A DNA stretch of 64,000 nucleotides from a virus (IMGVR_UViG_3300042892_003674), one strand, 5' to 3'. Counted from the stretch's first letter, positions 30,168 through 59,120 are shown. Numbers and translations are program-made. The notes: generated by a model from the sequence alone, not told the origin.

Positions 30168-30241
30168 TGCAGTGAATATTGGACTCGAACCACACCTCCG
30201 ACGACTCCGGTCGGTACTCTAACCTTTTAAGCTATATCACT
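30168..30241 (-). pseudogene. degenerate tRNA (Asp-like body, scrambled loop CGGAGTC)
   Basis: D-arm and TTCGAG present; acceptor and T stems mismatched; G33 and T37. Confidence 0.55.
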
Positions 30242-37673: not shown

Positions 37674-38106
37674 TTGGTATTAAATACTCAGTAACTGAAG
37701 TCCAATCAGGAAACTTATCTGAAGCAAATTCAATCCATTCTCCTTCAAACTCAGGTTGACCATTTTGACCATTATCATCAATAAGGTAGTCACCTTTCAC
37801 TAAAGATTTATCACCACACATAATCGTTTTTTCTAATACATCGAAACCTAAATGTTCTAAAACCCACTCAGCTTTCTCGTTAAAACAATTGATATTTTTA
37901 AATGAAGGACGTGTTAAAATCCAAACGTCATAATGTTCTTTTAATTTATTAAAAGACTCAATTGCATCTGGCATTGGTTCAAGATTTTTGAAGAACCCTA
38001 TTCGTGATTGAGGAAATTTAAAGTCAGGGTCTTTTCTACGAACATCTGAGAATGCTCCAAAAAAATCACACAAAACTCCATCCATGTCAATATAAACTCT
38101 TTTCAT
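37666..38106 (-). CDS. 5'(3')-deoxyribonucleotidase (HAD)
   Basis: YIDMDGVLCDF, EKAEWV, DYLIDD. Confidence 0.88.
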   Translation of the reverse strand: MKRVYIDMDGVLCDFFGAFSDVRRKDPDFKFPQSRIGFFKNLEPMPDAIESFNKLKEHYDVWILTRPSFKNINCFNEKAEWVLEHLGFDVLEKTIMCGDKSLVKGDYLIDDNGQNGQPEFEGEWIEFASDKFPDWTSVTEYLIPTI

Positions 38107-38154
38107 AATAATGTGTTTTATATTCTATACAAAGATACGAATTTAGTTTAAATA

Positions 38155-38188
38155 AAAAAGACTTCTTAATTAAAAGAAGTCTTTTTTT
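38155..38188. terminator. bidirectional terminator ending tRNA array 2
   Basis: AAAAAAGACTTCTT-AATTA-AAGAAGTCTTTTTTT. Confidence 0.8.
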
Positions 38189-38192
38189 GTTG

Positions 38193-38267
38193 AGCACTCT
38201 ACCGGATTCGAACCGGTGTCCCTGGGTTACAAAGCCAGAATAATCAAACCAACTATACGAAGAGTGC
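38193..38267 (-). tRNA. tRNA-Thr(UGU)
   Basis: Loop TT-TGT-AA. Confidence 0.8.
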
Positions 38268-38276
38268 ATATTTTTG

Positions 38277-38350
38277 AGCCAATAAAGGGAGTCGAACCCT
38301 CAACCTTCTCCATACCAAGGAGATACTCTAACCAATTGAGCTATATCGGC
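38277..38350 (-). tRNA. tRNA-Thr(GGU)
   Basis: Loop TT-GGT-AT. Confidence 0.9.
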
Positions 38351-38357
38351 ATTTTTG

Positions 38358-38431
38358 AGGCGCGGACTGGGATCGAACCAGTGTGTATGAGGTTGCAGCT
38401 CATCGCCTTCGTGCCACTCGGCCACCGCGCC
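38358..38431 (-). tRNA. tRNA-Cys(GCA)
   Basis: Loop CT-GCA-AC. Confidence 0.9.
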
Positions 38432-38438
38432 ATTATTG

Positions 38439-38511
38439 AGCTTCCTGACGGGATCGAACCGACGACATCTTGATTACAAATCAAGTGCTCTACCTGCTGA
38501 GCTAAGGAAGC
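38439..38511 (-). tRNA. tRNA-Thr(UGU)
   Basis: Loop TT-TGT-AA. Confidence 0.92.
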
Positions 38512-38520
38512 ATTTATTAG

Positions 38521-38591
38521 AGGTGCCTACTGGATTCGAACCAGTGTAGGAGATTTTGCAGACCTCTGCCTCACCACTCGGCCAAGGCACC
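38521..38591 (-). tRNA. tRNA-Cys(GCA)
   Basis: Loop CT-GCA-AA. Confidence 0.92.
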
Positions 38592-38599
38592 ATTTTTTG

Positions 38600-38673
38600 T
38601 TGGTAGTAAGGGAGTCGAACCCATAACCTCTTCGGTATCAGCGAAGTGCTCTAACCAGTTGAGCTAACTACCA
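38600..38673 (-). tRNA. tRNA-Ile(GAU)
   Basis: Loop CT-GAT-AC. Confidence 0.9.
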
Positions 38674-38681
38674 ATATATTG

Positions 38682-38757
38682 TGATTCCTATAGGATTCGA
38701 ACCTATGACCTCTTCCGTGTAAAGGAAGCGCTACTGAACCAACTGAGCTAAGGAACC
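38682..38757 (-). tRNA. tRNA-Val(UAC)
   Basis: Loop TT-TAC-AC. Confidence 0.92.
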
Positions 38758-38764
38758 TTTTTAT

Positions 38765-38944
38765 TTATTTTTCTTCACAATTATAATTTACGATGAAGTT
38801 CCATTTAGGAAAATTAGGATTTGATATATTTTCTATTACTTTTTCAGAAATCAATCTAAATCCATTAGTTTTCTCTAATGTTTCTCTCCAATTATAATTT
38901 TCATCATCAGAGCTAAATCCAATTGTGACATTTAATGTTTTCAT
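38765..38944 (-). CDS. 59 aa hypothetical protein inside tRNA array 2 (not in ORF track)
   Basis: MKTLNVTIGFSSDDENYNWRE...; fills the spacer between the two Val tRNAs. Confidence 0.55.
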   Translation of the reverse strand: MKTLNVTIGFSSDDENYNWRETLEKTNGFRLISEKVIENISNPNFPKWNFIVNYNCEEK

Positions 38945-38945
38945 G

Positions 38946-39020
38946 TAGTCCTAGACGGATTCGAACCGACGACCTATTCCGTGTTAAAGAATCGCTCTGA
39001 ACCAACTGAGCTATAGGACT
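38946..39020 (-). tRNA. tRNA-Val(AAC)
   Basis: Stem ATTCT/GGAAT, loop TT-AAC-AC. Confidence 0.85.
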
Positions 39021-39027
39021 ATTTTTG

Positions 39028-39100
39028 TTGGTATGGCGGGTTACGATCCCACTACCTTTCGCGTATCAGGCGAATGCTCTACCGAGTGAGCTACATACCA
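39028..39100 (-). tRNA. tRNA-Ile(GAU)
   Basis: Loop CT-GAT-AC; T-loop ATCGTAA. Confidence 0.82.
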
Positions 39101-39109
39101 ATATTTTTG

Positions 39110-39183
39110 CTCTCCCGCTTGGACTCGAACCAAGGACCCTCTGATTAACAGTCAGATGCTCTAACCAACTGAGCTACAGGAGA
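39110..39183 (-). tRNA. tRNA-Asn(GUU)
   Basis: Loop CT-GTT-AA. Confidence 0.92.
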
Positions 39184-39189
39184 ATTTTG

Positions 39190-39277
39190 CTACTGGGGTG
39201 GGATTCGAACCCACGGTGGAGCGATGCTCATCGGATTAACAGTCCGAACCATTCGACCTGGCTATGGCAACCCAGTA
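39190..39277 (-). tRNA. tRNA-Asn(GUU) with long variable arm
   Basis: Loop CT-GTT-AA; extra arm GAGC-ATC-GCTC. Confidence 0.75.
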
Positions 39278-39284
39278 ATATCTG

Positions 39285-39358
39285 CTCTCTCGACAGGACT
39301 CGAACCTGTAACCCTTGGACTAACAACCCACCGCTCTGACCATTATAGCTACGAGAGA
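39285..39358 (-). tRNA. tRNA-Asn(GUU)
   Basis: Loop TT-GTT-AG. Confidence 0.82.
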
Positions 39359-39377
39359 ATATTTATTTTTTGACATG

Positions 39378-39409
39378 AAAAAACCCAAACTTTTTGAGTT
39401 CGGGTTTTT
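39378..39409 (-). terminator. attenuator terminator, tRNA array 2
   Basis: AAAAACCCGAAC-TCAAAAA-GTTTGGGTTTTTT. Confidence 0.88.
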
Positions 39410-39436
39410 ATGAATTTATTATAATATACTTTAACT

Positions 39437-39526
39437 TTATACCATACATATCTCATTACCCGAAGTCGTGTTATTCACACAATTCGTAATCGTAATCACA
39501 TTAATATTTACAGTATTTGTTTTCAT
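39437..39526 (-). CDS. leader peptide 2 (MKTNTVNINVITITNCVNNTTSGNEICMV)
   Basis: Residues 3-21 are only T/N/V/I/C, the five specificities of the array. Confidence 0.9.
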   Translation of the reverse strand: MKTNTVNINVITITNCVNNTTSGNEICMV

Positions 39527-39530
39527 TATA

Positions 39531-39588
39531 TTATATATTAAATTTTTATTGTCCCTTTTTGTTTATCTTTATTTATAGTACAAATATA
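39531..39588 (-). promoter_or_regulatory. tandem promoter boxes for array 2
   Basis: TAtaTTTG (39581-39588) and TAATATATAA (39531-39540). Confidence 0.6.
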
Positions 39589-39631
39589 CTATAAGTTTTT
39601 TAATCTACCTAATTTTATTAGTATTATTTTG

Positions 39632-39714
39632 TACGGATAGTCGGACTCGAACCGACACGCATATTTCAGCACTGACTTCTAAGGCCAGCGGGTCTACCAT
39701 TCCCCCATACCCGC
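39632..39714 (-). tRNA. tRNA-Leu(UAG)
   Basis: Loop CT-TAG-AA; long variable arm. Confidence 0.9.
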
Positions 39715-39722
39715 ATATTTTG

Positions 39723-39804
39723 TATCGAAGGTGGGATTCGAACCCACACGTCTTTTGGACACTCGGTCTTGAGCCAAGCACGTCTACCATTTCATCACTC
39801 CGAC
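39723..39804 (-). tRNA. tRNA-Leu(CAA)
   Basis: Loop CT-CAA-GA. Confidence 0.92.
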
Positions 39805-39813
39805 ATTCATTTG

Positions 39814-39896
39814 TACCGAGAGCGGGACTCGAACCCGCACGTCCTTTCGGACACTGGCTTCTTAGACCAGCATGTCTACCATTCCACCACCTCGGC
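39814..39896 (-). tRNA. tRNA-Leu(AAG)
   Basis: Stem CTGGT/GCCAG, loop CT-AAG-AA. Confidence 0.88.
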
Positions 39897-39902
39897 ATAT
39901 TG

Positions 39903-39987
39903 TATCGGAGAAGGGACTCGAACCCTCACGCCCATTACTGAGCACAGCATTTTAAGTGCTGCGTGTCTACCATTCCACCACTCCGAC
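39903..39987 (-). tRNA. tRNA-Leu(UAA)
   Basis: Loop CT-TAA-AA. Confidence 0.92.
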
Positions 39988-39998
39988 AAGTGATTTTG

Positions 39999-40079
39999 TA
40001 CCCCAGATAGGATTCGAACCTACATTTTCAGTTTCCAATTACCCGTAGTTGTTTAGAAGACAACTGGGACTACTGAGGC
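39999..40079 (-). ncRNA. D-armless tRNA-Arg(UCU)-like RNA
   Basis: Acceptor GCCTCAG/CTGGGGT; extended stem AGTTGT-CTTCTAA-ACAACT; canonical T-arm; no D-arm. Confidence 0.6.
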
Positions 40080-40088
40080 ATATTTTTG

Positions 40089-40175
40089 TACGTCTGGAGG
40101 GAGTCGAACCCTCACGGCCATTCCTGACCACAGATTTTTAAGACCTGCGTGTACTACCAATTTCACCACAGACGC
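40089..40175 (-). tRNA. tRNA-Leu(UAA)
   Basis: Loop CT-TAA-AA. Confidence 0.9.
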
Positions 40176-40181
40176 ATTTTG

Positions 40182-40255
40182 TGACCCCGACAGGATTCGA
40201 ACCTGTGACCTACTCATTAGAAGTGAGTTGCTCTATCCAGCTGAGCTACGGGGCC
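40182..40255 (-). tRNA. tRNA-Arg(UCU)
   Basis: Loop CT-TCT-AA. Confidence 0.93.
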
Positions 40256-40274
40256 AATTTTTATTTTTTTCCAC

Positions 40275-40308
40275 AAAAAAACCCGAAACTTTTATATTTC
40301 GGGTTTTG
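40275..40308 (-). terminator. attenuator terminator, tRNA array 3
   Basis: CAAAACCCGAAA-TATAAAAG-TTTCGGGTTTTTTT. Confidence 0.88.
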
Positions 40309-40331
40309 TTTGTATATTTAGTTATAATATG

Positions 40332-40436
40332 TTATCCAATAACAGTATCATTTGCTCTAAATAAGGCAAAACCCGGTTCACGTCTTAGACATAAGACATT
40401 CAGCGTTAAGTTAATATTTAGATTAGTTGTTTTCAT
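40332..40436 (-). CDS. leader peptide 3 (MKTTNLNINLTLNVLCLRREPGFALFRANDTVIG)
   Basis: 6 Leu and 3 Arg codons upstream of the Leu/Arg array. Confidence 0.85.
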   Translation of the reverse strand: MKTTNLNINLTLNVLCLRREPGFALFRANDTVIG

Positions 40437-40440
40437 TATT

Positions 40441-40501
40441 GTATATATTAAGATTTTATTCTCTCTTTTTGATTATTTGTTATTTTTATAGTACAAAAGT
40501 A
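40441..40501 (-). promoter_or_regulatory. tandem promoter boxes for array 3
   Basis: TActTTTG (40494-40501) and TAATATATAC (40441-40450). Confidence 0.6.
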
Positions 40502-40526
40502 ATAAAAGTTTTCTATTGTACCTAAT

Positions 40527-40760
40527 TTATTTTAATTTATTTTCAAAAAACTCTGAGAGTTCTTTTACTAACTGTTCATTATTTTTTATTGTAGATTCTT
40601 GATCTTTTACATCAACCTCAATTGGATCATCAAACCATAATCCTTTGTTATCAAATCCTTTTGTTTTTGTCCAGGTAATCAAATCATTTAATCCCCAGAA
40701 TACTTCTTGTGGAGTATCTGAACCCCAAGAGTGCATAATTGTTAAGAAAAATTTTTCCAT
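40527..40760 (-). CDS. hypothetical protein
   Basis: 77 aa; TAccTTTG box upstream. Confidence 0.65.
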   Translation of the reverse strand: MEKFFLTIMHSWGSDTPQEVFWGLNDLITWTKTKGFDNKGLWFDDPIEVDVKDQESTIKNNEQLVKELSEFFENKLK

Positions 40761-40836
40761 TTATTTAGTTATTTCTATTTGTACTACAAAGGTAATAAAA
40801 AATTTTTATTGTATCAAAAATATGATATTTATTAAA

Positions 40837-41110
40837 CAGATAATCCAGATATTTCTATCTGGATTATCCGTTATAAGTAATATCACGTTAGTGATATTCC
40901 CCTACCACAGATAATGTCACCACTATCTGAGATCTCGCGACTGACCGGTTACCCGGCCAGCCGCGAGACACTAAACAAGAGCAGTTCTGAAGAATTGCCC
41001 TGTTTTCGCACACCTTCACAACGGGTTGCGTTGTGATTTAGCTGGTAGATTCCACTAACCTTTCACTAGCAAGGTGAATTGGCTGGGAACTGACTCACAT
41101 CAAACAAGAT
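40837..41110 (-). ncRNA. unidentified structured ncRNA
   Basis: GC-enriched non-coding stretch with at least 5 hairpins and a TAATATATAC box upstream. Confidence 0.6.
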
Positions 41111-58188: not shown

Positions 58189-58956
58189 TTATATTAAATC
58201 TAAATCTATACCGTGAGTGTCCCACCACCATTCTTTAGATTTATCTTGGTGTTTATCTTTCAATCTTTCCCACTTCAATAAAATTCTTTCCTGCCTTTCG
58301 ACTTCATCATAATAAAATTGATGATCTATTATAATATTTTCTTTATGACATAACCTTAATAATTTCTTTAATATGTAACCTTGTTTATTATTACCCGGTA
58401 CAAAACCACTGTCAATTATCTTTTTAATCGTTTCTACCAACGTTTCTTGTTTCGACTTAGTAGTTTTATTCAAAATCATTTCTAATCGTTCTAAACCAAA
58501 CCCAACGTCAATACAAGTGCCTAATGGATTCACTATGTTTCCAATTTCAATACCATCTTTGTAAAATTCAGTACAATATCCACCTATATCACCATCAGAC
58601 CAAATACACTCTTCGTCAAATCTAACTTCTATATCTGTATAGAATTCTGACCATTCTGGTTTATCTGGATGTATAGTAACATAATCAGGTGTTATACCTA
58701 TTATCTTTAAAAAATCTAACCAATAATTTATTGTTTGTGGTACAGTCCATTCTCTGAAAGAGAAGAACCCTATCATATTGAAATAAAGTAAATGAGTCCC
58801 ATCACCTATTTCATCTATATCATTTAATCTTAAACAAGATTGTATGTTTGATATAGTTCCTTTGTAGTTTAAGTCTTTGAATTTAGACTTGTGTTGTTGC
58901 ATTCCTGCTGGACAGAATAATGTAGTTTCGTCATAAGACCTAACATTATCATCCAT
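58189..58956 (-). CDS. alaS: truncated alanyl-tRNA synthetase (catalytic core only)
   Basis: AGMQQ.K, QSCLR..DIDEIG...H...F.M.G.FSF, IDVGFGLERL; no editing or C-Ala domains. Confidence 0.8.
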   Translation of the reverse strand: MDDNVRSYDETTLFCPAGMQQHKSKFKDLNYKGTISNIQSCLRLNDIDEIGDGTHLLYFNMIGFFSFREWTVPQTINYWLDFLKIIGITPDYVTIHPDKPEWSEFYTDIEVRFDEECIWSDGDIGGYCTEFYKDGIEIGNIVNPLGTCIDVGFGLERLEMILNKTTKSKQETLVETIKKIIDSGFVPGNNKQGYILKKLLRLCHKENIIIDHQFYYDEVERQERILLKWERLKDKHQDKSKEWWWDTHGIDLDLI

Positions 58957-59061: not shown

Positions 59062-59120
59062 TAGGGATAGAGGGAATCGAACCCCCAAAAATCCTGCTCT
59101 TCCAATTGAGCTATATCCCA
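59062..59120 (-). ncRNA. tRNA-like RNA lacking the anticodon arm
   Basis: Acceptor, D-arm GCTC-AATTGGAA-GAGC, 9-nt linker, T-arm GGGGG-TTCGATT-CCCTC. Confidence 0.7.

Follow-up and report, generated by a model that had tools for sequence, protein, structure and literature searches.

The window, by which we mean the whole 64,000-nt stretch of viral DNA that was analyzed (IMGVR_UViG_3300042892_003674), is AT-rich (29% G+C) and carries 41 tRNA genes called by ARAGORN, every one on the minus strand. A pattern scan and public sequencing runs place its probable source as a huge freshwater phage: near-identical DNA is found in metagenomes of at least a dozen studies of lake, freshwater, and estuary, and a relative is represented by the 635-kb uncultured phage record LR745206.1. 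Four leader/terminator/tRNA cassettes lie in the window and have a promoter and 5′ region in common. Their sensing stretches specify Met/Pro/Gln/Asp, Asn/Thr/Val/Ile/Cys, Leu/Arg, and Ile(AUA)/Ala/Glu/Gly/Tyr, and each leader precedes an array of exactly the tRNAs that match its stretch. The Leu/Arg unit and its surroundings comprise the following features.

40494..40525, minus: promoter, TTAGGT plus −7 box, read in sequence
40525-40520, minus: upstream promoter element TTAGGT, with an 18-nt spacer to the −7 box
40501-40494, minus: −7 box, TACTTTTG
40437..40486, minus: A-rich 5′ UTR, from a presumed transcription start
40332..40436, minus: leader ORF of 34 codons with an ATG start, beginning MKTTNLNINLTLNVLCLRR
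40228-40491, plus: antisense ORF of 87 aa with a TTG start, overlapping the tRNA-Arg gene
40272..40314, minus: intrinsic terminator, outer pair 40314/40272, with seven U
39631..40255, minus: tRNA array of seven RNAs, with spacers of 5–10 nt that leave no room for a promoter
40255-40181, minus: tRNA-Arg(UCU), about 16–17 nt after the terminator
40175-40088, minus: tRNA-Leu(UAA)
40079-39999, minus: Arg(UCU)-like RNA, an Rfam tRNA match of 38.1 bits
39987-39902, minus: second tRNA-Leu(UAA)
39896-39813, minus: tRNA-Leu(AAG)
39804-39722, minus: tRNA-Leu(CAA)
39714-39631, minus: tRNA-Leu(UAG)
39375..39612, minus: next cassette, with promoter, leader L2 (39526-39437), and terminator

Promoter, leader ORF, and tRNA array

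We take the promoter to be of the Bacteroidota sigma-A type, an assignment based on the Bacteroidetes consensus. In an alignment, its −7 box also stands ahead of the window's other three leaders; the upstream motif has 3 matches against 0.18 expected, and the pattern TTWG-N19-TAnnTTTG is enriched in the window (7 vs. 1.4 expected). The 5′ UTR holds a conserved block, TTAATATATA, directly 5′ of the ATG, which is kept in leaders L1, L2, and L3 and in relatives. Promoter, ORF, terminator, and tRNA genes are contiguous, with no space for a separate tRNA promoter.

A preliminary description of this DNA had reported a leader ORF at 40436-40332 with Leu codons followed by AGA CGT, and all of its coordinates and codons are correct. 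Leu is specified at codons 6 (CTA), 10 (TTA), 12 (CTG), 15 (TTA), and 17 (CTA), with a further TTA at 25; Arg is specified at codons 18 (AGA), 19 (CGT), and 27 (AGA). Five Leu within the 12 codons 6–17 has p = 0.0018 at the phage Leu frequency of 8.2%, for a span chosen post hoc. The antisense ORF that the same description mentioned does exist, overlapping the tRNA-Arg gene; it lacks a Pfam match, as do the upstream 77-aa ORF, a 59-aa inter-array ORF, and a 982-aa ORF.

The leader holds more than Leu and Arg codons: ten of codons 2–22 specify Asn, Thr, Ile, Val, or Cys. A generic N-terminal stretch of Asn, Thr, Ile, and Val, common to all leaders, partly explains these non-Leu codons, and the next two arrays downstream carry tRNAs for the same five amino acids. 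The downstream L2 leader has zero Leu codons, an asymmetry that fits a nested arrangement and is seen in one lineage. Among the Leu anticodons of the array, only UAG and UAA (two of four species) find a cognate codon among the leader's Leu codons; the CUU/CUC or UUG codons that would correspond to Leu(AAG) and Leu(CAA) are absent from it. Leaders favor codons rare in phage genes, such as CTG and ACG (1% of the Leu and 3% of the Thr codons there, respectively), and third-position G reaches 14–78% in sensing stretches vs. 7.9% in phage genes. This choice recalls the enterobacterial leu leader, which uses rare CUA codons.

Conservation is concentrated in the first part of the ORF. In the orthologues L025, L045, and L052, the N-terminal sensing part is kept and the C-terminal sequence and length differ; ORF length across relatives stays within a class of 27–38 codons. 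Indels 5′ of the antiterminator described below are 3, 6, or 12 nt long, those 3′ of it 1–8 nt, and the leader peptide over the antiterminator and beyond is unconserved. This is the pattern of constraint expected of a translated sensor joined to an RNA switch, rather than of a functional peptide.

The array content given in the preliminary description—Leu(UAG, CAA, AAG, and UAA twice), Arg(UCU), and an Arg-like RNA—was located in full. The Arg(UCU)-like RNA has almost no D arm, an anticodon loop of CUUCUAA, a long variable region of ~21 nt, and a normal acceptor stem and T arm. ARAGORN misses it in the window; its homologue in LR745206.1 (L001 6254-6343) is called as a 90-nt tRNA-Arg. Further weak or truncated minus-strand tRNA-like matches that ARAGORN leaves uncalled lie at 59062-59120 (59 nt) and 30170-30241, at Rfam scores of 41.8 and 29.3 bits.

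Since no terminator separates the Leu array from the L2 cassette, transcripts that pass the terminator of the Leu unit (terminator 3) would run into the next cassette. Four freshwater metatranscriptome runs were mapped to 38100-40800, mostly yielding tRNA of other organisms. They gave two RNA contigs of depth 3–4, each of which may reflect DNA carry-over: X17 (266 nt), running from the last part of the L2 ORF through the L2 terminator to two tRNA-Asn genes (39210-39474), and X15 (151 nt), covering the L2 5′ UTR and most of the ORF (39456-39582). Coverage over 40284-40374 is zero.

Other loci in the window were recorded alongside the unit. The 59-aa ORF lies between two tRNA arrays (38765-38944, minus), its ATG abutting the end of tRNA-Val(AAC). 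Between the 982-aa and 77-aa ORFs, at 40835-41100 (minus), is a G+C-rich segment of 266 nt that folds at −121 kcal/mol (z = −10.6) and ends in a 16-bp hairpin, a candidate non-coding RNA; it has no Rfam match, and BLAST against all fetched loci returned none. A 255-aa ORF at 58189-58956 (minus) matches only the N-terminal catalytic part of class II alanyl-tRNA synthetase (PF01411, 1.5e-18) and stands downstream of an Ala-tRNA array whose leader has Ala codons.

Terminator, antiterminator, and folding of the leader RNA

The terminator hairpin begins 17 nt after the end of the ORF. Its core stem pairs CCCGAAA with UUUCGGG, is lengthened by A:U pairs, and closes on a loop of 6–8 nt. Three further elements lie within or across the ORF.

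40380..40399, minus: P1 hairpin of 8 bp, codons 13–19 (ORF nt 38–57), in the lowest-energy fold
40367..40375, minus: antiterminator 5′ strand, CGGGUUUUG, ORF nt 62–70, within codons 21–24
40324..40351, minus: inner hairpin of the antiterminator domain, ORF nt 86–113, spanning the stop codon (40334-40332)

The preliminary description had proposed that 40367-40375 is a perfect 9-nt complement of the terminator 5′ arm, and this pairing is present: CGGGTTTTG at 40375-40367 complements CAAAACCCG at 40308-40300. The latter segment is both the terminator 5′ arm and the antiterminator 3′ strand, and the two pairings are mutually exclusive. Dinucleotide shuffling of the ORF yields a 9-nt complement in 22 of 5000 cases. 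The observed duplex has an energy of −14.5 kcal/mol, compared with −6.0 ± 1.8 for shuffled sequences, of which 2 of 2000 are as low. On their own, these shuffle statistics and the Leu density are suggestive only, and the weight comes from the family.

Folding predictions recover both states. The complete transcript is predicted to adopt the terminator fold (−39.9 kcal/mol, z = −4.9). When the transcript is truncated before the 3′ arm, its lowest-energy fold has 40375-40367/40308-40300 as a closing stem, which encloses a domain of two inner helices and the stop codon; L2 and L4 show the same layout in the truncated-transcript fold. The terminator state is by far the more stable, at −39.9 vs. 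−25.7 kcal/mol with an antiterminator-type stem enforced one base off the true register. A stable 1:2 pairing that would sequester the antiterminator strand was not found in folds of the Leu leader; the classical 1:2 alternative is present in L1.

The P1 hairpin ends 4 nt 5′ of the antiterminator strand and is followed by a U stretch; it may be an RNA polymerase pause hairpin, as judged from the fold. Leu-type, merged-type, and L2-type leaders have a hairpin at the equivalent site (z −1.0 to −3.2), a feature that is not family-wide, and the P1 hairpins of the two subfamilies fall at unaligned positions.

We also modeled a ribosome held at individual codons, covering 11 nt 3′ of the A-site codon. 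A block at any Leu codon from 6 to 17 leaves the full set of 9 antiterminator pairs able to form. With the block at AGA, 7 of the 9 remain, and at CGT none do. Translation would end 34 nt past the antiterminator strand, at the stop codon.

Leader/array matching across the family

An IMG/VR scan with a promoter–UTR–ATG pattern returned 40 loci, about two thirds of them leader cassettes. LR745206.1 has at least five cassettes ahead of tRNA arrays, and the pattern scan and LR745206.1 together give 29 distinct cassettes in huge-phage contigs. Twenty-six distinct leaders stand before two or more tRNAs; in these, a fraction of 0.47 of codons 2–22 encodes an amino acid that the leader's own array serves with a tRNA, vs. 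0.20 for other arrays. The own-array match was reached in 0 of 20,000 permutations, a figure that, like the other permutation result below, overstates independence because the cassettes compared are related by descent. The +1 and +2 frames of the leaders carry no array-match signal. The true leader–array pairing is the best of 24 arrangements in the window and the best of 120 in LR745206.1. Leaders before tRNA-Leu arrays have 4.4 Leu in codons 2–22, vs. 0.5 in others.

More telling than the permutation statistics are the re-sorting events. Where Asn, Arg, Leu, Val, Ile, Thr, Cys, and Met tRNAs form one merged array, one merged leader carries all of these residues (L010, L036, L039, L049, and L054). 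Conversely, LR745206.1 splits the fourth array (Ile/Ala/Glu/Gly/Tyr) and has one Tyr/Glu leader and one Ile/Ala/Gly leader. In a third lineage, Pro is grouped with Ala, Thr, Gly, and Val in array and leader alike.

The RNA pairing changes with the cassette as well. Across nine Leu-type and merged-type orthologues, all 10 terminator stem pairs are always paired (90 cells), and four of them covary. Within the antiterminator, the GGGUU:AACCC core never varies and one pair covaries, and the helix slides between subfamilies: the Leu type extends on one side (UUUUG with CAAAA), the merged type on the other (CUGA with UCAG). This type-specific extension gives every member 8–12 contiguous pairs with its own terminator. 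The matched segments are CGGG with CCCG in the Leu unit and CUGAGGG with CCCUCAG in merged types. Because column-wise covariation in the antiterminator is modest, we compared each ORF with its own and with swapped terminator arms. Over 29 units, the complement averages 7.1 nt with the own arm vs. 5.3 nt with swapped arms (0 of 20,000 permutations), and the pairing energy is −12.1 for own vs. −8.3 kcal/mol for other arms.

One cassette of LR745206.1 (L001 4023-3920, minus) departs from the tRNA theme. Its 16-codon leader has an Asn-Asn-Arg-Asn-Arg run, an 8-nt antiterminator, and a terminator, and it precedes two genes (L001 3876-2698 and 2678-1500), the first an AsnRS gene (TIGR00457, 394 bits; NF003037, 414 bits) and the second with weak similarity to ArgRS. 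This cassette ties the family to amino-acid-specific sensing. Its −7 box is only 5 nt 5′ of the ATG, and the mRNA may be leaderless. Elsewhere in LR745206.1 (near 345,090; L006 from ~1580), a leader-like 14-codon ORF, MRALHTYKITIDLG, occurs with an antiterminator-like complement and a terminator ahead of a gene whose product is highly basic, in place of tRNAs, with no evident codon logic.

The preliminary description had called the unit a Leu/Arg attenuator. The anatomy and about 30 related cassettes give good support to the attenuator and its Leu sensing; the Arg part is weak. Leaders before tRNA-Arg arrays have 1.29 Arg in codons 2–22 vs. 0.84 in others, and the leader's CGT is read by no tRNA of its own array, relatives having CAA or AGA there. 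Given this weak enrichment, the CGT without a matching tRNA, and the unfavorable geometry near the antiterminator, Arg sensing is doubtful. Every Leu-type and merged leader keeps AGA, and tRNA-Arg(UCU) heads four of nine arrays and falls within the first three genes in six of nine.

Attenuation model, alternatives, and known systems

We consider it likely that the unit controls access to a phage tRNA array by ribosome-mediated (leader-peptide) transcription attenuation, responding to Leu decoding. The phage would probably make these Leu/Arg tRNAs only while the corresponding codons are being read slowly. In the proposed sequence of events, host RNA polymerase would initiate at the TAnnTTTG promoter and a ribosome would translate the 34-codon leader. 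Slow decoding of CUA, UUA, and CUG (codons 6–17) would hold this ribosome 5′ of ORF nt 62; the inner hairpins could then fold during transcription, followed by the closing stem 40375-40367/40308-40300, which would tie up the terminator 5′ arm and allow readthrough into tRNA-Arg, the five tRNA-Leu, and the next cassette. With fast decoding, the ribosome would cross the antiterminator strand and inner hairpins to the stop codon, the local terminator hairpin would win, and transcription would end at the U run. The net effect would be negative feedback, with Leu tRNAs made when their pool is short and stopped once it is restored. The sequences show the ORF, the terminator, the two exclusive pairings, and the leader–array match across the family; that the ORF is translated, which way the unit responds, and what it senses in the cell are inferred. 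With the stop codon far past the antiterminator and no 1:2 pairing, the choice between the two states must be kinetic, set by ribosome–polymerase coupling; the lack of a 1:2 pairing also predicts that an untranslated transcript reads through.

That last prediction leaves room for a more general sensor. The unit might respond to overall translation capacity, that is, to whether a ribosome keeps pace with polymerase, such that any delay in ribosome loading or movement leads to the antiterminator and the codon content is inherited or weakly selected. Readthrough as the predicted default without a ribosome suits this reading, as does the generic N-terminal Asn, Thr, Ile, and Val stretch that all leaders share. 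It would not lead one to expect the frame-specific match of leaders to their own arrays, the repeated re-sorting of leaders where arrays split or merge, or an Asn/Arg leader ahead of AsnRS, and we regard it as unlikely.

Decidedly unlikely, in our assessment, is a constitutive or timed terminator, either leaky or overridden by a phage antitermination factor, with the ORF uninvolved. The tRNA genes can indeed be reached only through a strong terminator, and huge phages carry many unknown proteins, including here the neighboring 77-aa and 982-aa ORFs that lack Pfam matches. Such a terminator leaves unexplained the conserved ATG, the reading frame with its indels in threes, the match of codons to the array, and the ORF-internal segment that tracks each terminator 5′ arm. 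That the ORF encodes a small functional protein independently and has a terminator of its own, the tRNAs arising from unregulated readthrough, is highly improbable: the conserved length class would agree with a protein, but the C-terminal halves of even close orthologues diverge in sequence and length, conservation sits at the sensing codons and the RNA pairing, and peptide composition shifts with the array. Least probable of all is direct, translation-independent tRNA sensing by a T-box-like leader RNA, which would share the terminator/antiterminator choice and the link to tRNA identity that are also T-box hallmarks, but for which no T-box or other Rfam leader family appears at threshold in the window or in a lax scan of the unit, only ~100 nt separate the ATG from the terminator, and the signal is spread over many codons of one frame instead of a single specifier.

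Among described systems, the unit would work like leuL and the multivalent ilv and thr leaders without belonging to a curated Rfam leader family or to the T-box family. At Rfam gathering thresholds, the whole window yields tRNAs only, with no leader family and no T-box; in the lax scan of the unit, the best leader match is Thr_leader at 25.8 bits (threshold 55), confined to the terminator hairpin. The leuL leader of Salmonella and E. coli is a short ORF with several Leu codons and alternative pairing between the terminator and an upstream segment. The phage unit resembles leuL (Rfam Leu_leader) in its Leu-codon ORF, including the uncommon CUA, in the alternative pairing of the terminator 5′ arm, and in the predicted readthrough when Leu codons are read slowly. 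It differs in that it would regulate tRNA genes rather than biosynthetic enzymes, has scattered instead of consecutive Leu codons, lacks a 1:2 pairing, has its stop codon within the antiterminator domain, and shows no sequence similarity to leuL. In contrast to trpL, a terminating ribosome would here leave the antiterminator strand unmasked, the stop being 34 nt beyond it.

Other comparisons concern what is sensed and what is regulated. The ilvGMEDA (Ile/Leu/Val) and thr (Thr/Ile) leaders likewise have one leader sensing several amino acids, and paralogous and merged phage leaders carry four to eight amino-acid kinds. Unlike in those leaders, the amino-acid set here is defined by the downstream tRNA genes and re-sorted at splits and merges, and the product would be the sensed molecule itself, making the loop direct. 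E. coli pheST, with its pheM leader, is alike in that an attenuator controls a component of the translation machinery through decoding of the cognate codon; its direct analogue is the Asn/Arg leader before AsnRS in LR745206.1, whereas the unit studied here would regulate tRNAs and not a synthetase. T-box RNAs likewise tie a terminator/antiterminator choice to the state of a specific tRNA but bind uncharged tRNA directly and without translation, whereas the signal here would be in-frame codons.

Phage T5 was considered as a precedent and set aside: it has small ORFs among its tRNA genes without terminators next to the tRNAs, and thus no such cassette. Within T5, the 91-aa T5.072 (L060 8618-8893) has a Trp/Glu/Tyr/Phe-rich segment, SWEGWEGEIEWLYFY, with a hairpin after the ORF and the T5 Tyr, Glu, Trp, and Phe tRNA genes a short way downstream; this may be coincidence, and the arrangement does not belong to the present cassette type.

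Leader-peptide attenuation is a textbook mechanism, established for genes of amino-acid biosynthesis and for a handful of synthetase genes. Full-text searches, covering literature outside subscription-only papers, turned up no report of tRNA genes controlled in this way. As the regulated products, tRNAs, are the sensed molecule, the attenuator would form a direct feedback loop on decoding capacity.

A broader reading, which we put forward tentatively and hold to be possible rather than likely, is that the cassettes constitute a modular, nested sense-and-respond system by which the phage watches its own tRNA supply. Each leader would test decoding of the codons served by everything downstream, and the Asn, Thr, Ile, Val, and Cys codons of the Leu leader would serve the arrays behind the next cassette. 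Leaders would be rewritten whenever tRNA genes move between arrays. The trigger could be loss of host tRNAs, through host shut-off or the anticodon nucleases of defense systems. If so, the switches would be on-demand counter-defense, not simple housekeeping feedback.

If the attenuation model is right, it would explain blockwise, on-demand expression of the dozens of tRNA genes in huge phages. The leaders would then be a sequence-readable record of the codons that are limiting for the phage in its host, and they would be compact, reprogrammable codon-specific switches. They would also make it testable whether phage tRNAs match codon usage or replace lost host tRNAs.
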